A stretch of 64,000 nt of DNA, taken from a bacterium ADurb.Bin157 (GTDB lineage Bacteria; Muiribacteriota; Ozemobacteria; Ozemobacterales; Ozemobacteraceae). The DNA lies in assembly GCA_002070375.1 (NCBI GenBank), contig MWDD01000001.1, positions 17,425 through 81,424 of the forward strand, read 5' to 3'. Below are positions 421 through 58,749 of the stretch, piece after piece (position 1 is the stretch's first letter; the number at the start of each line of letters is the position of its first letter). Below the pieces are notes generated by a model. The model was not told the origin of the DNA, did no database searches, and saw only the letters and a program-made list of their open reading frames with translations. A program made the position numbers and the translations under genes.

Positions 421-2340
421 TTATTTATGATCTTTGCACGCAAAAACTTTATTCACGACAGCGCAGACATCGACCACTCTGATCTGGTGAAACTTAAGCA
501 TATCCGACAAACTTAATGCTGACTGTGAATAAGCTCTTGCCCCTATTCTAACGGGATTTTTAAACCCAAGCGCCCCAATAAAAGCCCCCAACCCTGTTTC
601 GCGCCGGTGGTCCTCTAAAGTAAACACATTGTTGTATTTTGCTATCAAGTTTTTCAAGACTTGATTTTCATCCGTGAATCGCTGAACTATAACCACATCT
701 AAAGCGATTCCAATGTCTTCCAGGGCTCTTTGCGACTTTAGCGCTGTTTTTGTCATGTGCGGCCCTGAAGTAAACAAAACTCCGCGTTTTACCGATTCTA
801 ATGCCGAAATGAATTTGCGACAGCCCGAATCTGCCAAAGGCGATGATATGCCTGTGTTGCAGGGCGTTCTGTGTAATCTGATATAAGTCGGTCTGCATTT
901 TCCGGTTTCGGAAAATTCCTTTCGCATCCGCTCAATAGCATAGGCCAGTAATGCTTCGGTGCTTTTTTCATCAACAGGCTCAACCATTTCAATATCACCT
1001 ATACATCGCATTAAACCAATATCATTTACCGCTTGATGGCTTTTACCGTCTGTAAAGTAATCTGCGCCCGAATAATGCGCCGCAAAAATAACAGGCACTT
1101 TTTCGGTCGCAACAGCAAAAATTTGATCAAGAGAACGCTTAAAGAAAGATGCATAAGTGTTAACAACGGCGATTTTGCCCGTCAAACCGATTCCTGCCGC
1201 AATTGAAGTCATATCTTGCTCGCTTATTCCGACTTCAATATATCTTTCATTAAAAAGACGCGCAACCTCGGTAAGTTTGCATGATTTTTCTAAATCTGCG
1301 TCTAATACAAAAATGTTCTTATCATTTGCATACTTAGCAAGAGCCGCCGTAAAAGCTTCGCCGGTAGACAAGTTTTTGTTATCGCTCTTATCATCGAACT
1401 CTTCTTGATTATCGCAGGTGTATTGTTCTTTGAATTCTTTAAACGATTGCCTCAAAGCTTTATGATCAATTTTGCCGACCAGCTCTTCAAGAATTTGTAA
1501 ATATTCGCCATCAGAAGGAATCTTACCATGCCACACACCCTCTCTTCTGGCGACATCTTTTGACATGGACGTTATTGAGCTGCCTGCGCCTTTAATGGTA
1601 TGAGCGATTATTATCGCCGGTGCGTTGCCGCTTAATACCTTTTCAATTGCACCTACAATTTCCTCAAAATTATGCCCGTCAATTTCATACACAACTAAGC
1701 CAATGCCCTCAAAGACCTTAACCCAATCAGCCGCATCTTTAATGTCTGCGGTGCAACTGTCAGACTGCAAATAATTTCTGTCTAATATGGGAACAACGCC
1801 GCGCGGGTTATGTTTTGCCAAAGTTAAAAGAGCCTCAAAGAGCTGCCCCTCCTGCATTTCGCCATCCCCCATCAGTGCAAAAACCGGCTTTATTTCTGTC
1901 GAATCAATATTGTTACTTAAAGCGTTGCCTATTGCCTTCGATAACCCCTGCCCCAGAGAACCGCTGTCAGAATCAACACCGGGAACAGACCTGTCACAAT
2001 GAGCGGGCAACCCGTCGAGTTGCTTATAAGTATTGAGCCTTTCAAGTTCGAAGCAACCCAACGCAGCCAAAATTGCATACTGCGCCATTGCTGCATGCCC
2101 CTTCGACATATGCAACGCACCTCTTTGGGTGCTTTCAATTGAAGGGTTAGGTATAAATCTGTGATAAATACTGCTCAAAATATCTATCCCGGAAAAACAA
2201 GCGCCTAACCAGCCATGAGAGGCAGACTTTAAGCCGGCAAGACAATTAATGCGATGGATATTCGCCAGTTTTTCTAATTGTCCAAAATCGTTAGAATCAA
2301 ACAAATCAATAATACTTTTATCAACAATAAATGTTTTCAT
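421..2340 (-). CDS. transketolase (single-chain, TPP-dependent)
   Basis: 639 aa. N-terminal TPP-binding motifs SKGHAAMAQYA and ALMGDGEMQEG. C-terminal pyrimidine-binding domain GISEQDMTSIAAG...NTYASF. Confidence 0.75.
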   Translation of the reverse strand: MKTFIVDKSIIDLFDSNDFGQLEKLANIHRINCLAGLKSASHGWLGACFSGIDILSSIYHRFIPNPSIESTQRGALHMSKGHAAMAQYAILAALGCFELERLNTYKQLDGLPAHCDRSVPGVDSDSGSLGQGLSKAIGNALSNNIDSTEIKPVFALMGDGEMQEGQLFEALLTLAKHNPRGVVPILDRNYLQSDSCTADIKDAADWVKVFEGIGLVVYEIDGHNFEEIVGAIEKVLSGNAPAIIIAHTIKGAGSSITSMSKDVARREGVWHGKIPSDGEYLQILEELVGKIDHKALRQSFKEFKEQYTCDNQEEFDDKSDNKNLSTGEAFTAALAKYANDKNIFVLDADLEKSCKLTEVARLFNERYIEVGISEQDMTSIAAGIGLTGKIAVVNTYASFFKRSLDQIFAVATEKVPVIFAAHYSGADYFTDGKSHQAVNDIGLMRCIGDIEMVEPVDEKSTEALLAYAIERMRKEFSETGKCRPTYIRLHRTPCNTGISSPLADSGCRKFISALESVKRGVLFTSGPHMTKTALKSQRALEDIGIALDVVIVQRFTDENQVLKNLIAKYNNVFTLEDHRRETGLGAFIGALGFKNPVRIGARAYSQSALSLSDMLKFHQIRVVDVCAVVNKVFACKDHK

Positions 2341-2341
2341 A

Positions 2342-3946
2342 CTAATCAGCCTGTGAATACCCTTCTACGTCTTTTTTTGCGTATTTGACTATAACATTGG
2401 CGGAAACAAGATTATTTAAAGCCTTTTTTAAATTTTTGTCTGATAGCTTGGTTTCCTTCTTTAATTCATCATAAGTTTTAAATGCTTCTCTGTCTAAAGC
2501 AGAATGTACCTTTTGATTGTTTTTGTTGCTCAAAAGTTTGATCATTTTATTGTGCAATGCCTTGCCCTCAGCAAGAGTAACAGTTTGAGGCTCGCCTTTT
2601 TTAGGGCCGTCCGCCATTTTTTTTGACATTTCTGAGTTCCAAAGATGCTCAAACTCTGCTTTGAAAGCATCGATGATCTTTTGATTGTGTTCGTAAAGAG
2701 CGTTGAAAAACATCACATTTTCAAAATTAAGAAACTCGCCGGAATTTGACCAATTGTAGCTTCCCACCGCCAATTCATTGTTGTTGACACACAAATTTTT
2801 GTGGTGCCAAAATAAACTTAAATAACTTATAAGACCTACTTTTTTCTTTTCCGAATCATAACCATAGGCATTTTTTCTGAATCGGTATCTGACTTGAATA
2901 TTAGAGATATTACGTTCCTTTGCCTGTTTTTCAAGCCAAGGCCCTAATTTGCCTTCTTTGGGGTCTTCGTCATTTAATTGCGCATGATCAAGTAAAAGCC
3001 TAAATTTGGCATTTGGATTTCTGGCGGCCGCAAGAAGAATGGCTTCCGCCAATTCGGTGCGTGTAAGGCTGAACATTCCAAGATCTAATGAACCTTCGGG
3101 CTTAACTCTGCCAATCATGCTAATAAGCTCTGAATCAATACGTGTTAGTTCTAATTCATTTTTGGGCTCTGAATTAAAGACAATTCCGGTATAACCCGGC
3201 ACAGGAGAAGCCTCTATATATTTTTCCGGGATCCATTCTCCGAATACAACCTCAGAGTATTCGTTCCAAAGTCTTGCAAACTCTTCTGCGAGCTGACGTG
3301 CCACTGCGGGTTGATTATCAAAAAACACTCTGTTTTCACCATATATTTGGTCTGAAGTAACGGAAATGTTTGCGCTCCCATTAAAACAACTGTGAGGAAC
3401 AGGATTATCGGGTGCATAAAAAATTCCGAATTTTTCATGCATCGTACCATAAATAACCGTTCCGTCATCTAAGGTCGCCTCTCGCTTGTTTCTTTTCATC
3501 GCTTTATCAGTAACCGCAGCAAGAGTGAAATCAAAGGGTTTGCCGTCTTCTTTTGCTTTTATTGCGCCCTTTTCAATTACATTAGCGATTTTATCGCGGC
3601 TTTCTTTGGCCCAAGAAGTCACACCGTCTAATAGCAACAGTACTTTTACGTTTTTATCTGATGCCGCCTTAATCATTGCATCAAGACATCCGTAATCGCT
3701 CATAGAATACATAGCTATTTTTGCGGTGCTGCCCGGTTCTAACTTGTCAAAAGCATATTTTATTGAATTCGACAAAGTCGCTTTTCTGGATATATTGTCT
3801 GAAAAAACTAGTTTTCTGGAATTATTAACGGGGCTAAAACCGCCCTTAGGGCCGAAATAAATATTAATATCATCGGCGTTGGCGGCATTTAAGCCGAGTA
3901 AAAAGACAAAAGCGACAACGAACCCTTTAAGCATTCTTTTAATCAA
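2342..3946 (-). CDS. secreted phospholipase-D-like (two HxK...GSxN modules) protein
   Basis: 534 aa with an N-terminal signal peptide. Two PLD-type motifs: MHEKFGIF...GSANIS and WHHKNLCV...GSYNWSNSG. The motif Asp is replaced by Tyr in the first motif and Asn in the second. Confidence 0.55.
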   Translation of the reverse strand: MIKRMLKGFVVAFVFLLGLNAANADDINIYFGPKGGFSPVNNSRKLVFSDNISRKATLSNSIKYAFDKLEPGSTAKIAMYSMSDYGCLDAMIKAASDKNVKVLLLLDGVTSWAKESRDKIANVIEKGAIKAKEDGKPFDFTLAAVTDKAMKRNKREATLDDGTVIYGTMHEKFGIFYAPDNPVPHSCFNGSANISVTSDQIYGENRVFFDNQPAVARQLAEEFARLWNEYSEVVFGEWIPEKYIEASPVPGYTGIVFNSEPKNELELTRIDSELISMIGRVKPEGSLDLGMFSLTRTELAEAILLAAARNPNAKFRLLLDHAQLNDEDPKEGKLGPWLEKQAKERNISNIQVRYRFRKNAYGYDSEKKKVGLISYLSLFWHHKNLCVNNNELAVGSYNWSNSGEFLNFENVMFFNALYEHNQKIIDAFKAEFEHLWNSEMSKKMADGPKKGEPQTVTLAEGKALHNKMIKLLSNKNNQKVHSALDREAFKTYDELKKETKLSDKNLKKALNNLVSANVIVKYAKKDVEGYSQAD

Positions 3947-4040
3947 TTATAATCTCCGTATTTCAGATTTTGACCTGTATTATTCTATCTGAAAACACCG
4001 AATTATAACAATCTATTTTTAAAAATATGCTTTTTAAATC

Positions 4041-5510
4041 TTATTTAAGCATCTTTTCAAGGAATTTTTTCGCAATAACAGGACTGCTCGTTACGCCCGG
4101 CCCGTTAAGACAACCGCCCTCACAGGTCATTACCTCTACAAATGCGGGTTCTTTAATAGTTTTATCCAAAACTCTTAACAATGACACAGTTTTATTGTTA
4201 ATGCCGTTAACCGGCTTGCTTACCGCTTTAACTCCACAAGAGGCTGCGCTTGCAATGACAGCATTCGCAACACCGCCCGACACGGCAAAGCCCCTTCCGA
4301 CAGAACTTGCTGACTTATCGGGTTCTTGCTCGTCACACTCAACAACATCAACACCGGCCGCTATAAATATCGAACCTAATTCCTCATAAGTCATAACGTT
4401 GTCGACATAAGTCGACTCGCGAGCTTCAAACCTCTTTGCCACACAAGGCCCTATAAACACACGGGTTGCACCGGGCCATTGATTTGAAACCCACTCGCCT
4501 GTGTATATCATAGGGCTAAGAGTGGTTGACACATAAGATTGTATTGAAGGAATATGCTTTTTAACAACCTGAACATACGCCGGGCAACATGACGATGTCA
4601 TAAAAGATTCTTTGTGCTCAAGGCGTTCTACAAATTCTTCTGTTTCTTTCTGAGCCGTAATATCTGCACCATAAGCGACTTCAACAACTTTATCAAAACC
4701 CATTTTTTTAAGAGCAGAAACTACTTTGCCGAAATCCGTATTAAATTGACCCGCAATAGATGGCGCAACCATAGCTACCGTGGTTTTACCCGGATCTTTT
4801 ATGTCTCTTAAAACATCAAACATCTCAGAACGCTCCATTATAGCCCCAAACGGGCATGCCAGCATGCACTTACCACAATAAACACATTTTTGCGGGTCTA
4901 TTTTTTCTTTGCCAAATTCATCTTTGCTAATCGCGTTAACAGGGCACGCTTCTTCGCAAGGTATCGGCTGATAAACAATTGCGTGATAAGGACAAACCTT
5001 TTCGCATATTCCGCAGCTCACACATAGATTTTCATCAATTATTGCATGTCCGCCTTCAAAGCGAATAGCTTTTTTGGGACAATTCATTATGCATGGCCTT
5101 GCCACACAACCCCTGCAAGCATTCGTCACTTGATATTTTGACCTTATACAAGCAGAACAAGCATCGTCTATAACAGTCAAAATACTTTCGTCAAATTTGT
5201 CTTCGCCCTTTTGCACGGCATCAGCAGCGTAGTCTTTTAATAATTTAACTTCGTCTGACTGACTCTCGCTTGCTGCGGCGAAGCCAAGAAGAACCTTAAC
5301 TCTGCTTCTAACAACGGCTCTGTCATGATGAATACAGCATCTTACCGATTCTGAGTTTTTCGGAGTCATTAAAACGGGAATAAGGTCTATGTTGTCTTGA
5401 ATAGTATCGTCTAGTATTAACTTTGCTAAACGAACCATAACTTGTCTTTTAATTATTGCTGCATTGTTTATGTAATTCATATATTTATCTGTGCTCTCGA
5501 ATGTAATCAA
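4041..5510 (-). CDS. [FeFe]-hydrogenase-like H-cluster domain protein (4Fe-4S dicluster plus H-domain, no PAS)
   Basis: 489 aa. Two CxxCxxCxxxCP ferredoxin motifs. H-cluster motifs TSSCCPAYV, FIGPCVAKRFE (Met to Gly) and EVMTCEGGCLNGPG. Confidence 0.75.
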   Translation of the reverse strand: MITFESTDKYMNYINNAAIIKRQVMVRLAKLILDDTIQDNIDLIPVLMTPKNSESVRCCIHHDRAVVRSRVKVLLGFAAASESQSDEVKLLKDYAADAVQKGEDKFDESILTVIDDACSACIRSKYQVTNACRGCVARPCIMNCPKKAIRFEGGHAIIDENLCVSCGICEKVCPYHAIVYQPIPCEEACPVNAISKDEFGKEKIDPQKCVYCGKCMLACPFGAIMERSEMFDVLRDIKDPGKTTVAMVAPSIAGQFNTDFGKVVSALKKMGFDKVVEVAYGADITAQKETEEFVERLEHKESFMTSSCCPAYVQVVKKHIPSIQSYVSTTLSPMIYTGEWVSNQWPGATRVFIGPCVAKRFEARESTYVDNVMTYEELGSIFIAAGVDVVECDEQEPDKSASSVGRGFAVSGGVANAVIASAASCGVKAVSKPVNGINNKTVSLLRVLDKTIKEPAFVEVMTCEGGCLNGPGVTSSPVIAKKFLEKMLK

Positions 5511-5733
5511 TAACTTTTGTCATACTTGCCGATTCCATAAGATAATCGTTAATTAAGACAAAAGGCGGTTTGGCATTAGGCTCATGACACTTTTGAAGAC
5601 AAGATGAACCCACAACCTCAACTTCATCTTTGATGTCAGCCGGCAAACAATCTTCCAAAACCATCATCTGCGCTCCGCCAAGAACATAACAGGTAGTGCC
5701 GGAACAAATAGAAACTTTGAATTTTTTACTCAC
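5485..5733 (-). CDS. thioredoxin-like [2Fe-2S] ferredoxin (NuoE/HydC-like)
   Basis: 82 aa. Cys pattern CSGTTC ... SSCLQKC, typical of NuoE-type 2Fe-2S proteins. Overlaps the downstream gene by 26 nt. Confidence 0.6.
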   Translation of the reverse strand: MSKKFKVSICSGTTCYVLGGAQMMVLEDCLPADIKDEVEVVGSSCLQKCHEPNAKPPFVLINDYLMESASMTKVIDYIREHR

Positions 5734-5748
5734 AACGGGCTCCTTAAA

Positions 5749-6954
5749 TTAAATATACTGAATGGTCGTTTCTTTATAATATTGCTCTTCAAGCTGTTTT
5801 GATATTTTCTTTATGACATTTCTTCTGATCTCTAAATCAACAGGCATATTTGGATCTTGGTGAAATTCATTGATTCTCGTACCTACAACGAAATTTATTA
5901 CATCGCTGTCAAGCATCAATTTTACTATCTTTGCTCCCGGGTCGTCTGTAAAGAAGTCAAGTTCGGTCTTATCTTCAAGATATTTTGCCGCTCTGCCGAT
6001 AGTTAAAATGCCTTCCGTTACCAAATCAGCGCCGTCCATTATTGATTCGGGAGGCAAATCAGCGGTTAGCTTGTCAAGCCTCACGTGAACCTTACGACCT
6101 GTTTCTCTTGAAATAATATTTGCGGTAGTGCCCCCGCATATTATTTTTTTACCGGGAAACTCCTCTACAAGCGATGCAAGCATTTTATCTTTTTGCCGAT
6201 CATATGGCGGGCCGGTCATTATTAACAAGCGTCTTGGATTTCTAAAATAAATTACACCGCAAGTAATATCATCTAAGGCTTTATGCGAATTATTTAACCA
6301 AGATTTCTCTACAATAGCCCTTGACAGATCATGAGCAGATATTTCAGGCTTTGAGGCAATTTTATCTAAAATAAATTTTCCGACCCTCTCAATGCCCCAT
6401 CCGAATGGAAGCTCTTTGCTGCCGATTCCGCTCTGACTGACACCGTCAGAAAACATTATAATGCGATCCCCAATTTTTGCGTCAAACCCCGACACATTTA
6501 TTTGCACAGGCTCTTTATCTGCTCTTAATACGTCTGCTTCTTGCTTTTGGGTATCCATAACAGAGCCATTTCTAGTAATCAAAACAGGTGGGTTATCATA
6601 CTCAACAATTCTGACTTCATTGTCAAAATCTATGTCAACCATCGAAAATGTACTGTAACTTATGTTTCTTTTAGAACATACAGGTAATGTTTCCATAATG
6701 CTCTTTGCAGCTTTGGCGGGATCTCTGAAGCTACCCATGTAGTTTAACCCCATAACAGAGGTTAAAGTGGCTAACACCCCTGCTTTAACTCCGCTTCCCA
6801 ATCCATCGGAAAGCACAGCCAACACCCGACTCTGTTCTTTAATTTTTTTAGACAAAAAAACATCGCCGCCAATTCGATTTTTTTCGCAGTATCTTTGGCA
6901 ATAATCAACTTCTATCGCACAATCAGATGTTTTCGGTGTGAACTCCATTATCAA
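5749..6954 (-). CDS. PP2C/SpoIIE-family serine phosphatase with C-terminal uncharacterised domain
   Basis: 401 aa. Has GGDVF, LSDGLGSG, MFSDGV and DDIT motifs of RsbU/SpoIIE PP2C phosphatases. Overlaps the upstream gene by 32 nt. Confidence 0.7.
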   Translation of the reverse strand: MIMEFTPKTSDCAIEVDYCQRYCEKNRIGGDVFLSKKIKEQSRVLAVLSDGLGSGVKAGVLATLTSVMGLNYMGSFRDPAKAAKSIMETLPVCSKRNISYSTFSMVDIDFDNEVRIVEYDNPPVLITRNGSVMDTQKQEADVLRADKEPVQINVSGFDAKIGDRIIMFSDGVSQSGIGSKELPFGWGIERVGKFILDKIASKPEISAHDLSRAIVEKSWLNNSHKALDDITCGVIYFRNPRRLLIMTGPPYDRQKDKMLASLVEEFPGKKIICGGTTANIISRETGRKVHVRLDKLTADLPPESIMDGADLVTEGILTIGRAAKYLEDKTELDFFTDDPGAKIVKLMLDSDVINFVVGTRINEFHQDPNMPVDLEIRRNVIKKISKQLEEQYYKETTIQYI

Positions 6955-8665
6955 CCTCCGCTGTTTCTTTAAAGGCCTCTAATACATTGTTCAAACGAAT
7001 TTCAGTTTCAGAAGCATTCTCTCCCAGCAAATAAGCTATCTTTTGAACAGTCTCCAAATTTAGTTTAATTACTTCTTCAACTCTTTTGACTACTTGCTCC
7101 CTTCTGACATGAGGCACTCTTATATCTTGAATTACAGCGCCGACTACCTGATTTCTTTCAATTGAAAAAACAGAAATATTTAATCTGTGATTGTTGTAAT
7201 CCATCTCGGAATCAACCAAATCTTCACCCGTCACCAAAACTTTTTGAAAAAGCTTATAGAACGGAACAATTTTATTCAGCATAGCACCTTCCAACCCCGG
7301 GGTTGCTTCAAAAATCATTTCTATTTCTGAGCCGAAAATAGAAGCAAAATGCTTGTTGCACTCAATAATTCGCATCGCAGAATCGGCAATTACAACTCCC
7401 GCAGGCATTGCCTTTATTAAAGCGTTTGCTTTTTTACTGGCTAATTTTCGCATATAAGAAGCGCACATGTTTTCCATCGCTTTTCCGTTTAAGAGAGCTA
7501 CTGCAAAATCTCGACACGAATCATAACCGCAACTGCCACAGTTCAACTCGTCTTTCAACGAGCTTTTACCAACCCTTTGCAAAGCGCTCCTGATCATCGG
7601 TTCAGAATAAACTCCCGAAATTATCGGCTTTATTTGAATTTCTGCACCAATGTTTATGCCATATAGGGGCTTGTCAAAATCAATCGTGTTTACAACATTG
7701 CTGTAAACATTATCCCGTTTAAGAACCGTAGACTCTTTATGTCTCATGCCGGGACCATTAACGCATCCTCCGCCACAAGCCAAAAGTTCGATAAAAATCT
7801 GTCTGTTTGGCGAAAATTTATCCAGATCTCCCATTGCCGCAATTATGGCTTTTATACCGGAAAAACACATAAACTCCACATTTTGCTTTTGCAAACGCCC
7901 CTTTATACCCGAAATCATTCCGCCGTCAATGGGATATAAACCCCCGTCTGAGGAATCAAAAGGATAAAATGTTTCTGAGCTGTCAGGATCTAATGCATAT
8001 GGATCAATATTTGACTCTTCAAACCACTTATGAAGATTTTCAAATGTCAAAGCAGCTAAAATATTTTCGTTAAATAAGTCAAATTCAATTTTCTTTGCAG
8101 CGCAAGGCCCAACAAAAGCAAATTGTGTATTAGGTGCCGATATGCTCGCTAAGTATTTAACATGAGCTGCCAGCGGTGAAACCAACGGCGTAAAGTACGC
8201 AACAAACTTTGGATAATACTTGTACATCATTTCAACTACTGTAGGACAAGCCGTCGAAAGAAATATTTTGTTATCTGAACTGTCAATCAAATCAGCTACC
8301 CCTTTTGAAACCATCTGAGCGCCGATAGCTGTTTCTGAAACTTGAGAAAAACCCAACTTTTTAATAGCTGATATAAGCTGCGATGAATGTAATTGAACAA
8401 ATTCAGCCCGCCACGAAGGAGCAACAGAAAGAATGACATTTCTTCCCATGTCTATAGCCTGTCGCACTTTTGCAACATCATTACGTATTTTTTTTGCGCC
8501 TGATGGACAAACCAAAACACATTTTCCGCAATGAATACACAGCTCATCAACAATACAAGCGCTGTTGTCTTCAATTTTTATTGCCTTAACAGGACACTCT
8601 CTGACGCATTTATAGCAATCTTGGCAATCTGCTTTTTTTGTGTATATAGGCTTTAACTCATTCAT
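6923..8665 (-). CDS. hydS: sensory [FeFe]-hydrogenase-like protein HydS (H-domain, extra Cys cluster, C-terminal PAS)
   Basis: 580 aa. N-terminal 2x[4Fe-4S] ferredoxin motifs. H-cluster motifs STACPTVV (proton-relay Cys to Ala), FVGPCAAKKIE (Met to Gly) and ELLACGGGCVNGPG. Then CGSCGYDSC and a PAS-like C-terminus. Confidence 0.75.
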   Translation of the reverse strand: MNELKPIYTKKADCQDCYKCVRECPVKAIKIEDNSACIVDELCIHCGKCVLVCPSGAKKIRNDVAKVRQAIDMGRNVILSVAPSWRAEFVQLHSSQLISAIKKLGFSQVSETAIGAQMVSKGVADLIDSSDNKIFLSTACPTVVEMMYKYYPKFVAYFTPLVSPLAAHVKYLASISAPNTQFAFVGPCAAKKIEFDLFNENILAALTFENLHKWFEESNIDPYALDPDSSETFYPFDSSDGGLYPIDGGMISGIKGRLQKQNVEFMCFSGIKAIIAAMGDLDKFSPNRQIFIELLACGGGCVNGPGMRHKESTVLKRDNVYSNVVNTIDFDKPLYGINIGAEIQIKPIISGVYSEPMIRSALQRVGKSSLKDELNCGSCGYDSCRDFAVALLNGKAMENMCASYMRKLASKKANALIKAMPAGVVIADSAMRIIECNKHFASIFGSEIEMIFEATPGLEGAMLNKIVPFYKLFQKVLVTGEDLVDSEMDYNNHRLNISVFSIERNQVVGAVIQDIRVPHVRREQVVKRVEEVIKLNLETVQKIAYLLGENASETEIRLNNVLEAFKETAEVDNGVHTENI

Positions 8666-8951
8666 GACCGCTCTCCGATTCTCCGATTGCCTGATTCAAC
8701 AACTCTGTAACCGACTGTGGCGGAACCTGCTCGTATATTTTTTCGTCAATTTTTATCACAGGAGCAGATTTGCATTTTTCTGAACACAAACAACCGCGAA
8801 ATTCAATATTTTCAGCTATTTTTCTGTTGTTCTTTAAGTATTCTGTAATTATTTCTACACTAAGTCTATTGCCCCTTGTAAAACAAGCACTGCCCATACA
8901 CAAAACTACTTCATGTTTTTTCTGAATTGTCGAATCGGAAATATTGCTCAT
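8658..8951 (-). CDS. thioredoxin-like [2Fe-2S] ferredoxin (NuoE-like)
   Basis: 97 aa. Cys pattern CMGSAC ... GCLCSEKC. GGAGG ribosome-binding site upstream. First gene of the cluster; overlaps hydS by 8 nt. Confidence 0.6.
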   Translation of the reverse strand: MSNISDSTIQKKHEVVLCMGSACFTRGNRLSVEIITEYLKNNRKIAENIEFRGCLCSEKCKSAPVIKIDEKIYEQVPPQSVTELLNQAIGESESGHE

Positions 8952-9001
8952 AAAAGCCTCCGGTTTATTATTTTAAAACCATCAAGATATATTATAAATG
9001 A

Positions 9002-9019
9002 TTGTGAAAAAATTCACAA
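9002..9019 (-). promoter_or_regulatory. Rex (redox-sensing repressor) operator TTGTGAA-AAAA-TTCACAA
   Basis: Perfect 18-bp match to the published Rex consensus TTGTGAAnnnnTTCACAA. Its left half serves as the -35 (TTGTGA), 17 nt from a TATAAT -10 at 8996..8991, about 45 nt upstream of the first ferredoxin ATG. Confidence 0.6.
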
Positions 9020-9032
9020 GCCTTTTGTTTTG

Positions 9033-9077
9033 ATAAAAAAAGCAGCATCAAAAAGATTATCTATTTTAATGCTGCTT
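9033..9077 (-). terminator. putative rho-independent terminator downstream of glgX
   Basis: Inverted repeat AAGCAGCAT/ATGCTGCTT with 9-bp arms, followed on the minus strand by a T7 run. Confidence 0.45.
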
Positions 9078-9091
9078 TCCGAATAAATATT

Positions 9092-11203
9092 TTACGGGTT
9101 TACTTTCTGACAACACCTAAAGAGCTTTAGAGAGCGACTTTTCAATTTTGTGCTTTGCCCCGAGAAAACCAATTCTTCGGCATTTGGATCAAAGGTTGAT
9201 ATCATCAACTCCCAATGCGCTTCGAATTTTGGCAAAATATACACTTTATCTTCACTTGATGCGTTTAACATAAGTAAAAGATTGTCATCATGAAGCGGGA
9301 CTCCGTTCTCATCAACATCGTCTACCCCGCTTCCTGCCAAAAACATGCTTAAACTTCTGGTATTATGACTCGACCAAGCTTGATCATCCATTTCAGTACC
9401 GTCAGGCTTATACCAAATAATATCCCTGACATTGCTTCCTCTTATTAATCTGCCCTGAAAAAACTTAGTTCTGTGCAACACAGGGTGATCTCGCCTAATC
9501 TTAATTACTTTTCTAGTAAACTGAAGCATTTTTTGACTTTCTTCATCAAGGTTCCAATCAAACCAGCTTATTTCGTTATCTTGACAATATGCGTTATTGT
9601 TACCCTTTTGCGTTCTTCTTATTTCGTCACCGCCGCACAACATTGGTGTTCCCTGCGAAAACATCAAAGTCGCCAAAAAGTTACGCATTTGTCTGTTTCT
9701 TAATTCTTTGATTCCCGGATTATTGGTTTCGCCTTCGACCCCATGATTCCATGACCTATTATCGTTGGTTCCGTCGCGGTTGCTTTCAAGATTGCTTTCG
9801 TTGTGCTTATCATTATATGAAACCAGGTCTCTTAACGTAAAACCGTCGTGAGCTGTAACAAAATTAATGCTCATATATGGCCTGCGGCCATCGTTCTCAT
9901 ATAAATCGCTGCTGCCGGTAAGACGATATCCCATTTCTCCGACACAACCGCCGTCACCTTTCCAGAATGAACGCATTACATCTCTGTATTTCGCATTCCA
10001 CTCCGCCCACAGCACAGGAAAATTTCCGACTTGATAGCCGCCCTCACCTACATCCCACGGTTCCGCAATCAATTTAACTTGGCTTATTGTCGGGTCTTGG
10101 TGAATAATAGTGAAAAAACTTGAGAGCTGATTCCAGTAATGCATTTCACGAGCCAAAGTCGAGCACAAATCAAACCTGAATCCGTCTACATGCATTTCTG
10201 TCACCCAGTATCTCAGTGAATCCATTATCAATTGCAATGTCTGAGGACTTACAACATTAATTGTATTGCCTGTTCCGGTATAATCCTTGTAATACCGTTT
10301 ATTATCTTTTTGCAGCCTATAATAGGTTAAATTATCTATACCCTTATACGACATTGTCGGCCCTTCATGATTTCCTTCGCAGGTATGGTTGTAAACAACA
10401 TCCAAAATCACTTCAAGCCCGGCTTTATGCAGTTTTTTTACCATTTCTTTAAATTCACGAACCGCTCCGCCCGGAGACTTATCTGAAGCATATCTTATTT
10501 CGGGACTAAAAAATGAAAGAGTGCTGTACCCCCAATAATTCTGCAAACCTTTATCATACAAGAATGGATCGTCAATATGCTGGTGCACAGGCAAAAGCTC
10601 AACTGTAGTAACCCCAAGATCTTTAAGATACTTAATAATTTCATCAGAAGCCAGCCCTGCATAAGTTCCCCGTATTTCATTGGGTATATGCGGACAATTT
10701 TTCGTTATTCCCTTTACGTGAACTTCATAAATAACCGAACGGTGAAACGAGTGTTTTGGCTTAACGTCGCCTTCCCAATCAAAATCAGAATCAATTACTA
10801 TTGACAATGGGGTTCCGGAAGCATAGCTCATTCCCTCTTCAAGGTCTTTATTGGGACTGAAAAGATTATAAGCGTGTATACCGTCTTTGTGACTTTCTAT
10901 TCCGCTAAGAGCCTTCGCATATGGGTCCATTAACAAAACACGCGGGTTAAATCTCAACCCGGCCTCAGGCTTATACTGCCCGTATACCCTGTATGCATAC
11001 ATTTGCCCGGGCTTAAGACCGGCAATATAAATATGCCATACAAATGCAGTTCTGTGGCGCAAAGGAATTCTTACCTCTGCCCGTTGATCATCAAAAAGAC
11101 ATAAATCTACTCCCTGAGCATGTTCACTGTATAAAGCAAAATTTACACCCTTGCCGTCATAGCTCGCGCCAAGCGGATAAGGAGTTCCGGGTTTAACCTG
11201 CAT
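9092..11203 (-). CDS. glgX: glycogen debranching enzyme GlgX (isoamylase, GH13)
   Basis: 703 aa. N-terminal [25 protein letters not shown] catalytic motif, EPWD, NHD. Confidence 0.9.
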
Positions 11204-11217
11204 ATTATCTCTTTTCT

Positions 11218-11496
11218 TTATTTTCGCTCTAAAATTTCAATCAAATGAAAACCAAACTGCGTCTTTATAGGCCCATAAACTTCATTTAAGTTCCCGCTAA
11301 AAACGACTTTATCAAATTCTTTTACCATCATACCGGGCCTAAATTCACCCAAGTCGCCGCCCTTTTTTCCGGAAGGACATTGCGAATGTTTTTCTGCCAA
11401 TGCCGCAAAATCTGCTCCGGCGTTAACCTGTTCAAGCAAATCTAGGCAGTCCTTTTTTTCTTTAACGAGTATGTGTCTCGCGCGTGCTGTTGTCAT
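11218..11496 (-). CDS. ppiC: parvulin-type peptidyl-prolyl cis-trans isomerase (PpiC-like)
   Basis: 92 aa. ARHILVK...[13 protein letters not shown]...GFHLIE parvulin signature. Confidence 0.8.
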
Positions 11497-18054: not shown

Positions 18055-18072
18055 TTGTGAAAAATTTCACTT
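18055..18072 (+). promoter_or_regulatory. Rex-like operator 1 upstream of adhE (TTGTGAA-AAAT-TTCACTT)
   Basis: 16 of 18 match to TTGTGAAnnnnTTCACAA, about 105 nt upstream of the adhE ATG. Confidence 0.5.
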
Positions 18073-18087
18073 GCATTGTTAAAAAGT

Positions 18088-18105
18088 TTGTGATATATTT
18101 CACAT
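18088..18105 (+). promoter_or_regulatory. Rex-like operator 2 upstream of adhE (TTGTGAT-ATAT-TTCACAT)
   Basis: Near-consensus palindrome 7 nt upstream of a TATAAA -10-like hexamer at 18113-18118. Confidence 0.5.
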
Positions 18106-18174: not shown

Positions 18175-20760
18175 ATGACGGTTAACAATCTTGAAACATT
18201 AAAAAGCACAATCGAAAAAGTTCGCGCGGCACAGAAAATTTTTTCAAATTATTCACAAGAACAGGTTGATGAAATATTTCGACAAGCCGCTATGGCTGCC
18301 AACAATAACAGAATTAAACTTGCTAAAGCCGCTTATGAAGAAACAGGTATGGGAATTGTTGAAGATAAAGTTATAAAAAATCACTTTGCTTCAGAATATA
18401 TTTATAATCAATACAAAGACGATAAAACCTGTGGGGTAATCGAATACGACAAATCATTCGGCATTACTAAAATAGCCGAGCCGATAGGTGTAATTGCCGC
18501 TGTCGTCCCAACAACAAACCCGACATCCACTGCAATCTTTAAAGCGTTATTAACTTTAAAAACCCGAAACGGGATCATTTTTTCTCCTCATCCAAGAGCG
18601 AAAAACTGCACAATCGAAGCCGCCCGAATAGTATATCAGGCAGCTCTTAAAGCCGGAGCGCCCGAGAACATAATTGCCTGGATAGATGAGCCAAGTGTTG
18701 AACTGTCTCAAAGTGTGATGCGCGAAACGGATTTAACTTTAGCAACGGGCGGTCCGGGAATGGTAAAAGCAGCTTATTCATCAGGCAAACCGGCTATCGG
18801 AGTCGGAGCCGGTAATACACCGGCAATAATTGATGAAACAGCACACATTAAAATGGCTGTAAACTCAATTTTACTTTCAAAAAGTTTTGATAATGGAGTC
18901 ATTTGCGCATCTGAACAATCGGTAATCGTTTTAGATGAAATATATGATTCCGTCAGAGACGAATTCATTGCCAGAGGAGCATATGTTTTAAAAGAAGATG
19001 AAATTGACTCTGTAAGACAAATAATTTTAATCAATGGAAAACTTAACGCAAACATCGTTGGGCAGAGTGCTGCGAAAATAGCAGAAATGGCAGGGATACA
19101 AGTTTCCCAAGATACTAAAATTTTAATTGGAGAAGTGGACTCAGTCGAATTGTCTGAACCTTTTGCACACGAGAAACTTTCCCCTGTGCTTGCTATGTAT
19201 AGAGCTCAATCTTTTGATGAAGCCGTAAATATGGCTGAAACTTTGGTTGAGCATGGCGGGTTTGGGCACACATCTGTTCTTTACACCGACCAAAACACCT
19301 CTAAAGATCGAATAGCACAGTTTAGCGCAAGAATGAAAACAGGGCGCGTAATTTTGAATATGCCTTCTTCACAAGGTGCTATCGGCGACATTTACAATTT
19401 CAAACTGGCTCCTTCGTTAACATTAGGGTGCGGATCGTGGGGAGGAAACAGTATTTCTGAGAATGTGGGGGTTAAACATTTGCTCAATATAAAGACGGTA
19501 GCAGAAAGAAGAGAAAATATGTTGTGGTTCAGAGTGCCTGAAAGAGTATATTTCAAATACGGGTGCTTAAGCATTGCCATTGATGAATTAAAGGATTTGG
19601 GCAAGAAACGTGCTTTCATTGTAACCGACAAATTCTTATTCGATAAAGGATTTGTAGATAAAATTACGCATGTTTTAGAAAGCAACGGAATAGATATTAA
19701 AATTTTCACGGGAGTTGAACCTGACCCGACTTTAGCTGTTGCAAGACGAGGTGTCCAGGAAATGATTTCATTTGAGCCTGACACAATAATTGCATTAGGT
19801 GGCGGCTCACCCATGGATGCTGCGAAAATTATGTGGGTAATGTATGAACATCCTGAAGTAAGATTTGAAGATTTGGCAATGCGATTTATGGATATCAGAA
19901 AACGTGTTTATAAGTTTCCGACGTTAGGTAAAAAAGCCATGATGGTTGCTATACCGACTTCAGCCGGTACCGGTTCTGAAGTAACCCCATTTGCGGTTAT
20001 AACCGATGAAACAACCGGTGTCAAATACCCATTAGCAGATTATGAGCTGACTCCTGATATGGCTATTATAGATGCAGAGCTTATGTCAGATATGCCAAAA
20101 GGTCTTACAGCAGCGTCAGGCATAGATGCTTTGGTTCATGCCATTGAAGCTTACGTATCTGTTTTGGCATCTGAGTTTTCAAACGGAATGGCTCTTGAAG
20201 CCATTAGGCTTGTTTTTAAATATTTACCTCAGGCTTATTCAGAAGGCAGTGCAAACTTCAAAGCGCGAGAAAAAATGGCACATGCTGCGTCAATGGCCGG
20301 AATGGCGTTTGCGAATGCATTCTTAGGAGTCTGCCACTCCATGGCTCATAAACTGGGTGCTCATCATCACCTTCCACACGGGCTGGCAAATGCACTTTTA
20401 ATAAATGAAGTTATTAAGTTTAACGCTGTTGACAACCCGCGCAAACAAACAGCATTCCCTCAATACAAATATCCGAATGCACAATGGAGATATGCAAGAA
20501 TAGCTGATTATTTAAGACTTGGTGGAAACACCGATGAAGAAAAAGTAGACCTCTTAATCGAAGCTATTAATAAATTAAAAAATGTGGTTAATATACCATC
20601 AAGCATCAAAGATGCAGGAATTTCTGAAGTTAAATTCTTTGCCGGGTTAGATGAAATGAGTGAAGAAGCATTTGACGATCAATGCACCGGGGCAAACCCC
20701 AGATATCCGCTGATAAGCGAAATCAAACAAATGTATATAAATGCATTTGAAGGTAAATAG
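18175..20760 (+). CDS. adhE: bifunctional acetaldehyde-CoA / alcohol dehydrogenase AdhE
   Basis: 861 aa. N-terminal aldehyde dehydrogenase domain and C-terminal Fe-ADH domain (GGGSPMDAAK, HxxxH metal site). GAAAGGA ribosome-binding site. Confidence 0.95.
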   Translation: MTVNNLETLKSTIEKVRAAQKIFSNYSQEQVDEIFRQAAMAANNNRIKLAKAAYEETGMGIVEDKVIKNHFASEYIYNQYKDDKTCGVIEYDKSFGITKIAEPIGVIAAVVPTTNPTSTAIFKALLTLKTRNGIIFSPHPRAKNCTIEAARIVYQAALKAGAPENIIAWIDEPSVELSQSVMRETDLTLATGGPGMVKAAYSSGKPAIGVGAGNTPAIIDETAHIKMAVNSILLSKSFDNGVICASEQSVIVLDEIYDSVRDEFIARGAYVLKEDEIDSVRQIILINGKLNANIVGQSAAKIAEMAGIQVSQDTKILIGEVDSVELSEPFAHEKLSPVLAMYRAQSFDEAVNMAETLVEHGGFGHTSVLYTDQNTSKDRIAQFSARMKTGRVILNMPSSQGAIGDIYNFKLAPSLTLGCGSWGGNSISENVGVKHLLNIKTVAERRENMLWFRVPERVYFKYGCLSIAIDELKDLGKKRAFIVTDKFLFDKGFVDKITHVLESNGIDIKIFTGVEPDPTLAVARRGVQEMISFEPDTIIALGGGSPMDAAKIMWVMYEHPEVRFEDLAMRFMDIRKRVYKFPTLGKKAMMVAIPTSAGTGSEVTPFAVITDETTGVKYPLADYELTPDMAIIDAELMSDMPKGLTAASGIDALVHAIEAYVSVLASEFSNGMALEAIRLVFKYLPQAYSEGSANFKAREKMAHAASMAGMAFANAFLGVCHSMAHKLGAHHHLPHGLANALLINEVIKFNAVDNPRKQTAFPQYKYPNAQWRYARIADYLRLGGNTDEEKVDLLIEAINKLKNVVNIPSSIKDAGISEVKFFAGLDEMSEEAFDDQCTGANPRYPLISEIKQMYINAFEGK

Positions 20761-24395: not shown

Positions 24396-25472
24396 ATGCA
24401 GGTAAACAAATATTTCACAAACATATTTATCATTTTAACATTATTCCTGTCATTTAACACTTATAACACTTGTTATGCACAGGCTTCAGTCAGAATTAAA
24501 GATATTTCGGCCCTAAGCGGCAACCGAGAATATCAGATTATAGGCTATGGACTTGTTACCGGGTTAAACGGAACCGGAGACAAGAGCGAAATGAGCCTCG
24601 AAATGATAAAAGGCATGTTTCGTAATTTAGGGATGGAATTATCTGATTCTCAAGTTGCATCAAAAAACTCCGCAGCCGTAATAGTGACTTCAATGTTGCC
24701 GGGCTATGGAAGGCCCGGCGAATTTATAGACGTAACAATAAGTTCTATCGGCGACGCTAAAAGCTTACAAGGCGGCGTCTTATTGCCAACCATGCTTAAA
24801 GCTAACGACGGAAACATTTATGCGGTCGCACAAGGTGCGGTATCTGTAGGTGGATTTGAAAGCGGCTCAAGCGGCTCTGCCAAAGGGGTCCAAAAAAATC
24901 ATTTAACAGTAGGCTACATTTCGAAAGGAGCGACTGTTGAAAGAGGAGTTGACGACAAGTTTGCAAAATCAGGTAAATTCAGTATTTTGCTTCAAGAGAA
25001 AGATTTAATTCTTTCCAGAAAAGTTAAAGAGGCTATTGATCAACGCTACGGAATGGGCTGGGCCGCTATAACCAACCCGGGCCAAATAGAAGTCACAATT
25101 CCTAGGGGGTTATCTGACGACCCGGTTAGTTTTGCCGCAAACATCGAAAACCTTACACTAAAAATTGAAGAACCAAACAGAGTTGTAATTAATGAGCGTA
25201 CCGGAACTGTAATAGTTGGAAACAATGTTAGAATAAGTAAGACAGCGATATCACATAACGGGATAAAAATTGCGGTCGGAGATGATAACAAACAAAACGG
25301 AGACAAAAAGAATGCCGTCCAAGGCACTTTGATTGGAGTTGAAGCCGAAACGACTGTTGACGATCTGGTTACAGCTCTAAATGCTGTCGGAGCGACCCCT
25401 AAGGACTTAATTGCTATTTTTCAGGCTCTGAACGCCGCAGGAGCTCTGCACGGGGAACTGAAGCTCATGTAA
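24396..25472 (+). CDS. flgI: flagellar P-ring protein FlgI
   Basis: 358 aa. Signal peptide then RIKDISALSGNREYQIIGYGLVTGLNGTGD, a canonical FlgI N-terminus. Confidence 0.9.
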   Translation: MQVNKYFTNIFIILTLFLSFNTYNTCYAQASVRIKDISALSGNREYQIIGYGLVTGLNGTGDKSEMSLEMIKGMFRNLGMELSDSQVASKNSAAVIVTSMLPGYGRPGEFIDVTISSIGDAKSLQGGVLLPTMLKANDGNIYAVAQGAVSVGGFESGSSGSAKGVQKNHLTVGYISKGATVERGVDDKFAKSGKFSILLQEKDLILSRKVKEAIDQRYGMGWAAITNPGQIEVTIPRGLSDDPVSFAANIENLTLKIEEPNRVVINERTGTVIVGNNVRISKTAISHNGIKIAVGDDNKQNGDKKNAVQGTLIGVEAETTVDDLVTALNAVGATPKDLIAIFQALNAAGALHGELKLM

Positions 25473-49716: not shown

Positions 49717-49730
49717 ATAAGATTTCCCGC

Positions 49731-58733: not shown

Positions 58734-58749
58734 TTAAGGAGAAATGTGA

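Follow-up and report, generated by a model that had tools for sequence, protein, structure and literature searches.

Genes of the locus

The window, that is, the whole stretch of 64,000 nucleotides of bacterium ADurb.Bin157 DNA which was analyzed, carries five consecutive minus-strand ORFs between positions 4041 and 8951 (Table 1). All are intact and tightly packed, the junctions in gene order being an 8-nt overlap, a 26–32-nt overlap, a 15-nt gap and a 4-nt gap. The initial annotation had described such a five-gene cluster, and both its ORFs and every motif that it quoted were recovered. The closest relatives of the host are Riflebacteria MAGs (63–74% identity).

Table 1. Features of the hydrogenase locus and of the adhE region, in window coordinates
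Feature	Position	Strand	Description
Group B monomeric [FeFe] hydrogenase (HfsD/HydM-like)	4041–5480	-	479 aa; TIGR04105, B1/B3
FdB	5485–5733	-	82-aa thioredoxin-like [2Fe-2S] ferredoxin
PP2C/SpoIIE-type Ser/Thr phosphatase (HfsC-like)	5749–6948	-	399 aa (401 aa from TTG at 6954)
HydS	6923–8665	-	580 aa; group C (M2f/C3-type) sensory-type [FeFe] hydrogenase
FdA	8658–8951	-	97-aa thioredoxin-like [2Fe-2S] ferredoxin, HfsA-like position
Sigma-70-like promoter, best match before the operon	8991–9019	-	TTGTGA-17-TATAAT
Rex-operator-like palindrome	9002–9019	.	TTGTGAAAAAATTCACAA; TTGTGAA-AAAA-TTCACAA
Hairpin and T-run	9034–9078	-	AAAGCAGCAT...ATGCTGCTTT then TTTTTTT; read directly from the sequence
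Two Rex-like boxes	18055–18105	.	2 mismatches each; 70–120 nt upstream of adhE
adhE	18175–20760	+	Aldedh + Fe-ADH (Pfam)

FdA was identified through PF01257 (E=1.7e-9, 38.2 bits, cut-off 24.8), its cysteine ligands forming a Cx4C...Cx3C pattern. FdB matched the same model weakly, at 20.7 bits and under the 24.8 cut-off; among 33 aligned FdB members (that of the window and 32 orthologues) 31 match PF01257, and the cysteines of the Cx4C...Cx3C pattern do not vary. The two are divergent paralogues with 22% identity. In related loci FdA lies before HydS in most cases, and FdB is always the gene immediately before that of the group B hydrogenase. The earlier observation that both hydrogenase genes follow a small thioredoxin-like [2Fe-2S] protein of their own was confirmed.

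The phosphatase, which probably starts at 6948, possesses a SpoIIE/PP2C domain (residues 42–235, Pfam) and, at the C-terminus, an alpha/beta domain (residues ~240–401) that is specific to the family and highly conserved. All of its metal-binding Asp motifs are present, and its translational coupling to HydS was likewise confirmed. A Pfam scan of the 37 larger ORFs of the window, with about a dozen more inspected by eye alone, revealed no kinase, STAS, anti-sigma factor, Rex, HydABC or HydEFG among those 37, in keeping with the earlier remark that the target of the PP2C is absent from the window. For the last gene a start at 5510 (489 aa) is an alternative; its relatives point to the ATG at 5480 (MNYINN..., 479 aa; P0001 is 100% identical).

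A group C and a group B hydrogenase

According to Pfam the 580-aa protein possesses two Fer4 domains, Fe_hyd_lg_C, PF04060 [FeS] and PAS_8, such that two N-terminal [4Fe-4S] sites are followed by the H-domain, a Cx2Cx4Cx16C motif and PAS. Its H-cluster motifs are FLSTACP, FVGPC and ELLACGGGC. Relative to CpI it displays C299A, E279G, R286S, S319T, M353G and M497L, which leaves the proton pathway broken. All 70 orthologues compared retain the cysteines of the H-cluster and the four at the C-terminus (70/70); 64 of them have C299A and 67 have M353G, while the positions of E279 and R286 are occupied by varying residues. An NJ tree with separate group C, B and A clades placed the protein in C. The same architecture and substitutions have been described for TmHydS and the M2f enzymes (PMC8163306, PMC13104023). 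Judged from its sequence the protein is, as first proposed, a sensory-type [FeFe] hydrogenase (HydS), namely a group C, phosphatase-linked, PAS-bearing one. Thermotoga maritima HydS (group C, M2f) and the HydDB group C3 “phosphatase-linked” class share with it the two N-terminal [4Fe-4S] sites, an H-domain without C299, M353G, the C-terminal Cx2Cx4Cx16C, PAS and an adjoining Ser/Thr phosphatase gene (PMC8163306, PMC5037454). It differs in having Leu at the M497 position, which is Ser in TmHydS, and a group B enzyme as partner.

For group C enzymes a role in H2 sensing is still called “putative” in the literature. One might suppose instead that HydS serves in slow H2 uptake or in redox poising, shuttling electrons between H2 and FdA, and that the signal to which PAS and PP2C answer is not H2 but a metabolite or the cellular redox state. 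Characterized group C and D enzymes do interconvert H+ and H2 slowly (PMC8163306), the C-terminal cluster of TamHydS is unresponsive to H2, against the simplest signalling model (PMC13104023), and the possibility of hydrogenase activity of HfsABC without HfsD has been raised (PMC13277313). We nevertheless consider this very improbable, given that HydS is invariably paired with PP2C in related loci; furthermore, since the relay Cys is so commonly lost (64/70) and the E279 and R286 positions vary, a sensor fits HydS better than does a turnover enzyme.

The 479-aa protein has four Fer4-type sites and Fe_hyd_lg_C (Pfam), and lacks both a PAS domain and the C-terminal Cx2Cx4Cx16C. Its motifs are FMTSSCCP, FIGPC and EVMTCEGGC. 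It passes NCBIfam TIGR04105 [monomeric [FeFe] hydrogenase, group B1/B3] with 521 bits against a cut-off of 450, does not pass the group A model TIGR02512 (173 bits versus 406), falls into the group B clade of the NJ tree, and is 47–51% identical to “monomeric [FeFe] hydrogenase” proteins of Bacteroidales and spirochaetes. All five CpI proton-relay residues (E279, E282, R286, C299 and S319) are kept; C299, E279 and S319 are retained in 36/36 orthologues adjoining HydS-PP2C.

The initial annotation had taken this protein for a second sensor, reading its GPC as a sensor mark, and had proposed a dual-input relay in which both H-cluster proteins sense H2 or redox state through different inputs and act jointly on the one PP2C. 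Such a relay is favored by the Gly which both proteins have in place of CpI M353, by the separate small [2Fe-2S] partner of each, and by the tight coupling of the five genes. FIGPC, however, occurs in 100 of the 120 closest homologues of the 479-aa protein, and F-x-G-P-C is, to judge from these, the usual group B state; Gly353 with Phe351 is also present in catalytic CpIII, whose F266/G268 pair is the same and which produces H2 at 305 umol per min per mg (PMC12138974). Together with the family model, the tree, the missing PAS and C-terminal motif, and the occurrence in other genomes of FdA-HydS-PP2C joined to HydCBA, this makes a dual-input relay most unlikely. Grouping of both proteins with catalytic group A hydrogenases together with retention of all proton-relay residues, or a phosphatase lacking its metal-binding Asp residues, had been named as evidence against it; half of this applies, the relay being kept in the 479-aa protein, and the Asp motifs are in place.

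Group B enzymes are ferredoxin-linked and catalytically active (PMC12578642, PMC12138974), and the 479-aa protein is presumably a ferredoxin-dependent catalytic hydrogenase. With Bacteroides HydM, C. pasteurianum CpIII and T. oceani ToHydA, all of group B, it shares four accessory [4Fe-4S] sites, among them a ferredoxin-like module at the N-terminus, as well as Phe and Gly at CpI 351/353 and the proton-relay Cys (PMC12578642, PMC12138974, bioRxiv 10.1101/2025.03.17.643706). Unlike the characterized M2a group B enzymes, which are defined by a TSCCCP signature (bioRxiv 10.1101/2025.03.17.643706), it reads TSSCCP in the L1 motif, with Ser in place of the supernumerary Cys. All 36 syntenic orthologues carry this Ser, and TSCCCP does not occur among the 120 closest homologues. 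The enzyme may thus depart from the M2a type in properties such as O2 protection.

Conservation of the gene order and its probable function

Relatives of the PP2C are encoded in at least 596 species genomes, from which the best 80 loci (one per species genome) were kept for synteny. The order FdA-HydS-PP2C-FdB-GrpB recurs in 26 of these 80, its carriers being Riflebacteria, spirochaetes, Bacteroidales, Alphaproteobacteria and Planctomycetota, and seven more show it minus one small-ferredoxin call. The arrangement had been thought unusual; by this comparison the operon is an ordinary, widely conserved one. About 20 of the best 80 loci have FdA-HydS-PP2C alone, and in others it lies beside HydCBA bifurcating hydrogenase genes and/or Rex. 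We take these three genes, therefore, to be a portable regulatory core serving different catalytic hydrogenases, the downstream hydrogenase being the interchangeable, regulated part. Since the second H-cluster protein is not of the sensory type and the arrangement is common, the relay gives way to one sensor and an enzyme which it probably regulates. In our judgment the cluster is likely an hfs-type hydrogenase operon, with a sensor and phosphatase beside a normal H2-producing enzyme.

The hfsABCD operon of Thermoanaerobacterium saccharolyticum and T. thermosaccharolyticum, compared through published descriptions rather than sequences, is alike in order and domain content: a small Fe-S protein, a PAS [FeFe] hydrogenase (HfsB), a Ser phosphatase (HfsC) and a ferredoxin-linked [FeFe] hydrogenase (HfsD). 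Genetic evidence ties it, too, to adhE and Rex. When hfsB is deleted, hydrogenase activity and the expression of adhE rise, and the deletion is believed to deregulate hfsD (PMC5707799, PMC11837493, PMC12288451). The window differs in its fifth gene, FdB, between phosphatase and catalytic hydrogenase, and in that its host is not a thermophilic Firmicute. In Ruminococcus albus, according to Zheng et al. (2014) as related in PMC6776011 and PMC5707799, a group C sensor, phosphatase, ferredoxin-only hydrogenase and AdhE are co-transcribed, and HydS/HydA2/AdhE are proposed to act as an H2-dependent fermentation switch. On that account gene order and domain content are again alike, the window having one extra small ferredoxin; the regulated hydrogenase of R. 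albus is group A1 rather than group B, and its AdhE belongs to the same regulatory unit, whereas that of the window lies 9 kb off on the other strand.

Alternatively, all five products might form one “Hfs” complex, in which HydS and PP2C act post-translationally upon operon-encoded partners, for example gating electron supply by reversible phosphorylation of the group B enzyme or FdB, without signalling to a transcription factor. The overlapping genes and conserved order are consistent with this, the neighbourhoods of the 80 loci revealed neither a conserved external substrate nor a conserved Ser/Thr kinase or STAS gene, and the C-terminal domain of the PP2C could serve as a docking module. 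HfsABCD are moreover treated as subunits in the Thermoanaerobacterium literature, where hfsB deletion alone raises hydrogenase activity (PMC5707799). Yet the core also occurs alone or beside HydCBA without a group B gene, and its target therefore cannot be group B- or FdB-specific; the altered adhE transcript levels after hfsB deletion point to a transcriptional output (PMC5707799), and phosphorylation of [FeFe] hydrogenases is not reported in the literature consulted. We regard such a complex as unlikely.

Under the favored reading of a sensor controlling an enzyme, the group B hydrogenase with its dedicated FdB would most likely reoxidize reduced ferredoxin by H2 evolution during fermentation, and FdA, HydS and PP2C would constitute the regulatory core. 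H2 would bind at the H-cluster of HydS, and because the proton exit is blocked HydS would report the H2/redox state rather than turn over fast, FdA as its redox partner probably poising it. The signal would pass via the PAS domain to the co-translated PP2C, which would dephosphorylate a partner encoded outside the window. On balance the group B hydrogenase would be under feedback control, as would probably ethanol formation via AdhE.

The upstream region and adhE

A second, transcriptional layer is suggested by the palindrome at 9002–9019, which has zero mismatches to TTGTGAANNNNTTCACAA and also conforms to TTGTGAAW4TTCACAA, the Rex site of S. aureus (PMC2883068). The best promoter before the operon agrees with consensus at 10/12 positions (a consensus match only), and the Rex box encloses its -35 hexamer. 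The match suggests that transcription of the operon is under NADH/NAD+ control, in which case Rex, bound over the -35, should repress it when NADH/NAD+ is low. Four Rex-like boxes with ≤2 mismatches occur in the window against 0.75 expected, a number reached by 0/100 shuffles. Hydrogenase operons and adhE are both classic Rex targets in fermentative bacteria (PMC2883068, PMC6391272), and from the two boxes upstream of adhE we tentatively assign this gene to the same Rex regulon as the operon. As against those regulons the window has no rex gene, and a box of the same consensus stands upstream of the block in only 2/67 related loci. Of the best 80 loci, about 10 carry a Rex gene next to the block and 8 have AdhE in its vicinity.

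Further upstream, the hairpin at 9034–9078 was omitted by the consensus scan because its loop is about 20 nt. It is probably the terminator of the upstream glgX-like gene, parting that gene from the hydrogenase operon.

Operon layout and gene calls

The region 4041–8951 is filled by five minus-strand ORFs, which were recognized by ORF reading together with Pfam and NCBIfam profiles (see table). The genes are tightly packed, with overlaps of 8 nt and 26–32 nt and gaps of 15 nt and 4 nt, the PP2C gene overlapping the 3' end of the HydS gene. The initial annotation had described such a cluster, with the motifs STACP and GPC in HydS and TSSCCP and GPC in GrpB, and all of these are present. Two of the products are probably shorter than the longest ORF: for GrpB the likely start codon is the ATG at 5480, giving 479 aa (a database protein is 100% identical), while near-identical database proteins place the probable start of PP2C at 6948, giving 399 aa.

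Features of the operon and of the adhE region
Feature	Coordinates	Strand	Description
FdA	8951–8658	-	Thioredoxin-like [2Fe-2S] ferredoxin, 97 aa; PF01257, E=1.7e-9
HydS	8665–6923	-	580 aa; two Fer4 sites, Fe_hyd_lg_C, PF04060 Fe-S motif, PAS_8
PP2C	6954–5749	-	SpoIIE/PP2C protein, 401 aa as longest ORF
FdB	5733–5485	-	82 aa; PF01257 match sub-threshold
GrpB	5510–4041	-	489 aa as longest ORF; four Fer4-type sites and Fe_hyd_lg_C
Rex-like box	18055–18072		2 mismatches; just upstream of adhE
Rex-like box	18088–18105		2 mismatches; just upstream of adhE
Rex-like box	18241–18258		Inside adhE
adhE	18175–20760	+	Bifunctional aldehyde/alcohol dehydrogenase (AdhE), 9 kb from the operon

When the window protein was aligned with 32 orthologues of FdB, PF01257 was matched in 31 of the 33 members and C10, C15, C45 and C49 were invariant, and on this basis FdB does belong to the ferredoxin family. 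With FdA, of which it is a divergent paralogue, it shares 22% identity and aligned cysteines.

The genes on either side of the operon are unrelated to it, namely a GlgX-like debranching enzyme (9092–11203) and, directly downstream, a secreted PLD-like protein (2342–3946, minus strand). The latter has two PLDc_2 domains and a C-terminal segment that weakly matches a winged-helix-like domain (TFIIE alpha).

Group assignment of the two hydrogenases

Relative to CpI, the reference [FeFe] hydrogenase of C. pasteurianum, HydS carries the replacements C299A, E279G, R286S, S319T, E282D, M353G and M497L. It keeps all four cysteine ligands of the H-cluster (CpI C300, C355, C499 and C503), which are invariant in 70/70 orthologues; C299A is found in 64 of these 70 and M353G in 67. 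The C-terminal motif is exact (C376-x2-C379-x4-C384-x16-C401), its four cysteines again being invariant in 70/70 orthologues. PF04060 is matched with E=1e-9, and a PAS domain (PAS_8, E=7.4e-7) follows the cluster motif. In group C the proton pathway is not conserved and M353 and M497 are replaced (PMC8163306), and the substitutions of HydS, combined with Cx2Cx4Cx16C and PAS, are the published signature of the group C (M2f) putative sensors (PMC8163306, PMC13104023). The pairing of HydS with PP2C, a feature of the phosphatase-linked C3 subtype, holds across the best 80 loci of at least 596 genomes. As judged by these residues and domains, HydS is a group C (M2f/C3) putative sensory [FeFe] hydrogenase, in agreement with the sensory type proposed for it at the outset.

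GrpB had been read as a second sensor, and here the evidence points elsewhere. It matches NCBIfam TIGR04105 (“monomeric [FeFe] hydrogenase, group B1/B3”) with 521.1 bits against a cut-off of 450, over profile positions 3–460 of 462, and JGI labels its homologues “[FeFe] hydrogenase (group B1/B3)”. The nearest relatives come from Riflebacteria MAGs (63–70% identity), and proteins called “monomeric [FeFe] hydrogenase” in Bacteroidales and spirochaetes share 47–51% identity with GrpB. Upon alignment to CpI the whole catalytic proton pathway (E279, E282, R286, C299 and S319) proved identical in GrpB, and K358 and M497 are also kept. Among GrpB orthologues adjoining HydS-PP2C, C299, E279 and S319 are each present in 36/36 and E282 in 35/36, while position 286 is R or K in 33/36.

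The “GPC” of GrpB arises from Phe and Gly at the positions of CpI T351 and M353 (VFIGPC), and FIGPC occurs in 100 of its 120 closest homologues. CpIII, a group B enzyme for which 305 µmol H2 per min per mg has been reported, has F266 and G268 at these same positions (PMC12138974). Since the Phe/Gly pair is common to group B, CpIII included, we regard it as a family trait and not as a sensor substitution; together with the profile score and the intact relay this makes a second sensor very unlikely. From its alignment GrpB is a catalytic-type group B hydrogenase with an intact proton relay. Ferredoxin-dependent H2 evolution has been demonstrated for group B enzymes of Bacteroides (PMC12578642), and recent work has established the group B [FeFe] hydrogenases as the main source of H2 in the human gut.

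The L1 motif of GrpB is TSSCCP (FMTSSCCP), the extra position being Ser in 36/36 syntenic orthologues, whereas the characterised M2a group B enzymes have TSCCCP, which was found in 0/120 of the closest GrpB homologues. In ToHydA and CpIII the TSCCCP motif has been linked to protection against O2 (bioRxiv 10.1101/2025.03.17.643706). Because it has TSSCCP and not TSCCCP, GrpB is filed under group B/TIGR04105, outside the TSCCCP M2a subclass. The closest group B clade around GrpB shows T(T/S)SCCP or SSCCP throughout in place of TSCCCP, so that the supernumerary cysteine is not universal among TIGR04105 proteins.

Two other assignments were considered and rejected. Membership of group A is contradicted for either protein by the TIGR02512 scores (173 bits for GrpB and 89 for HydS, cut-off 406) and by the neighbor-joining tree, in which HydS falls in the group C clade and GrpB in the group B clade, both apart from CpI and HydA. 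The best PDB group A matches of the two hydrogenases scored 147 and 86 bits, and no solved group B, C or D structure was found as a reference among the PDB entries searched. Over the H-domain HydS and GrpB share 29% identity. Members of group D (M2e, TamHydS-like) have Cx2Cx4Cx16C in a C-terminal domain, have lost C299 and carry Ser/Thr at the M353 position (PMC8163306). GrpB keeps C299, has Gly at 353 and lacks the cluster domain, its C-terminus lying some 20 residues past the L3 motif.

The phosphatase and its gene neighbourhoods

The 399-aa protein matches the family profile of SpoIIE/PP2C. GGD31, SD50GLGSG, SD170G and D228-D229-IT are invariant in 29 PP2C homologues, the motifs around D31, D50 and D170 aligning with SGD, SDGMGNG and SDG of B. 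subtilis SpoIIE. From established knowledge of PPM phosphatases we take the conserved aspartates to be the metal ligands. Their absence had been named beforehand as a finding that would refute the proposed module; D31, D50, D170 and D228/D229 are present, and PP2C is a putative phosphatase with a competent active-site signature.

Residues ~240–401 of PP2C form a conserved alpha/beta domain (invariant C273-GGTTA, T313-EG, G358-T, N362 and H365-Q) which matched no Pfam family. A library of 1.84 billion representatives yielded 857 matches to it, virtually all of them the C-terminus of ~390-aa proteins. The domain is always present in the HydS-associated PP2C family, private to it and almost absent elsewhere. 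Long “PP2C” ORFs at two related loci (L060 and L080) had the appearance of HydS-PP2C fusions, which would have spoken for direct contact of the two proteins, and were dismissed as spurious read-through extensions in high-GC sequence.

Relatives of PP2C were found in at least 596 genomes when a single genome of each species was scanned, and the best 80 loci were analysed after annotation by phmmer, the queries being the proteins of the window together with Rex and HydCBA from a Riflebacteria contig. The exact order FdA-HydS-PP2C-FdB-GrpB occurs in 26 of these 80, carried by Riflebacteria, Treponema and other spirochaetes, Bacteroidales, alphaproteobacterial MAGs and Planctomycetota, and a further seven miss only one small-ferredoxin call. 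The block is conserved over at least five phyla, and the arrangement is not the unusual one that the initial annotation took it to be. FdA-HydS-PP2C stands alone in about 20 of the 80 loci; the remainder include loci at which it abuts HydCBA (the bifurcating group A3 hydrogenase) and/or Rex. As these three genes occur alone, with GrpB or with HydCBA, we consider FdA-HydS-PP2C a portable regulatory core and FdB plus GrpB an interchangeable partner.

In the five closest relatives (L001–L005) the order is Rex-HydC-HydB-HydA, the five-gene block and then a second HydS-PP2C pair, this divergent pair (HydS 590 aa, PP2C 382 aa) also following the block in L020. The window locus consists of the five genes only, without the Rex-HydCBA and second-pair extensions seen in L001–L005. 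Among cultured carriers, Treponema sp. OMZ 840 (L012) has FdA-HydS-PP2C-GrpB, with an FdB-like ORF (11198–11446) overlapping the extended GrpB ORF call, and Plebeiibacterium sediminum (L085) has at 1786–8449 four of the genes, FdB being absent, with a gene for a PAS/sigma-54 activator before them.

No kinase, STAS protein or anti-sigma factor was found among the 37 window ORFs profiled, as the initial annotation had stated, nor were Rex, HydABC or HydEFG. Likewise, all-against-all clustering revealed no conserved kinase, STAS or anti-sigma neighbour around the best 80 loci. The only recurrent neighbours there were HydF, a HydE/G-like radical SAM protein, PAS histidine kinases, ABC ATPases and AdhE, and the PAS histidine kinases (17/80 loci) are fixed neither in position nor in strand.

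The near uniqueness of the PP2C C-terminal domain and the lack of a conserved kinase, STAS or anti-sigma partner nearby led us to consider whether PP2C might target GrpB or FdB of its own operon directly, in which case the five genes would be a self-sufficient valve giving post-translational feedback by H2. Electron supply to the hydrogenase would then be gated by reversible phosphorylation, and the two small ferredoxins would serve as the reference electrode of the sensor and as the gated electron entry of the enzyme. We think this improbable, and favor a target of PP2C encoded elsewhere. These facts of distribution narrow the search for the signalling partner, the cultured species just mentioned being among the carriers.

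Likeness to hfs systems and putative control by Rex

The gene order in the window is that of hfsABCD: a small Fe-S protein, a PAS hydrogenase, a Ser phosphatase and a ferredoxin-linked hydrogenase (PMC11837493). Judged by how its genes are arranged and by their domains, it is an operon of the hfs type with a HydDB group C3 sensor and a group B partner, the comparison with HfsA–D (ACU11594–ACU11597) being one of gene order and domain descriptions. It differs from the published four-gene hfsABCD in having the additional FdB gene, and no Thermoanaerobacterium locus was found among the best 80 of the at least 596 genomes. In Thermoanaerobacterium, deletion of hfsB leads to higher hydrogenase activity and adhE expression, hfsD being thought to become deregulated (PMC5707799, PMC12288451).

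The 140-nt gap upstream of the operon holds a terminator-like hairpin, which with a T-run probably ends the glgX-like gene, a promoter-like site (TTGTGA-17-TATAAT being the best before the operon) and a Rex-like box. This box, TTGTGAAAAAATTCACAA at 9002–9019, lies over the -35 element of the operon and matches exactly the Rex operator consensus TTGTGAA-W4-TTCACAA (PMC2883068). With up to 2 mismatches four boxes were observed in the window against 0.75 expected, and 0/100 shuffles reached four. By the same measure a box lies upstream in only 2/67 related loci, which makes the Rex inference local to the window. A rex gene adjoins the block in about 10 of the best 80 loci, and there is none in the window.

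The operon and adhE may share control by NADH/NAD+, as the positions of the boxes suggest. In 8 of the best 80 loci AdhE is found close to the HydS-PP2C block, immediately upstream in four of them (L064, L069, L071 and L077). This, along with the proximity of adhE in the window, recalls the cluster of R. albus and the hfsB-adhE link of Thermoanaerobacterium. In fermentative bacteria, a role in switching between the formation of H2 and that of ethanol is ascribed to group C sensors.

Based upon the literature on these families, we would propose that GrpB, with FdB, reoxidises ferredoxin by H2 production (PMC12578642), while HydS, with FdA, would use its PAS domain to inform PP2C of H2 and redox state, and PP2C would in turn dephosphorylate a protein encoded elsewhere. 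As a result hydrogenase activity or expression would presumably come under feedback control, as would AdhE, and Rex could add transcriptional control by NADH/NAD+ over the putative operator. Such a scheme parallels Thermoanaerobacterium hfs and R. albus (PMC6776011). Of the dual-input relay originally suggested, the sensor type of HydS and the phosphatase survive, and the second sensor and the unusual layout do not. The need to identify the sensor's interaction partners was still being stressed in the literature of 2026 (PMC13104023), so the question of output is general to the field and not peculiar to this locus. The window holds no new kind of system; what stands out is the conservation of the block, its portable core, the private PP2C domain and the lack of a travelling kinase or STAS protein.

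Genes for the flagellar P-ring (FlgI), FliF and FliG are found at 24396–25472 and 56832–59796 (plus strand), in DNA of about 39% G+C. These genes show that the host is a motile diderm, in keeping with the resemblance of the hydrogenase genes to those of Riflebacteria. On the minus strand at 47125–52035, an 863-aa protein joins a LuxC-like acyl-CoA reductase to an AMP-binding domain. It is followed by a LuxE-like acyl-protein synthetase of 375 aa and a 394-aa protein with no Pfam match. This region may represent a fatty aldehyde/alcohol module.
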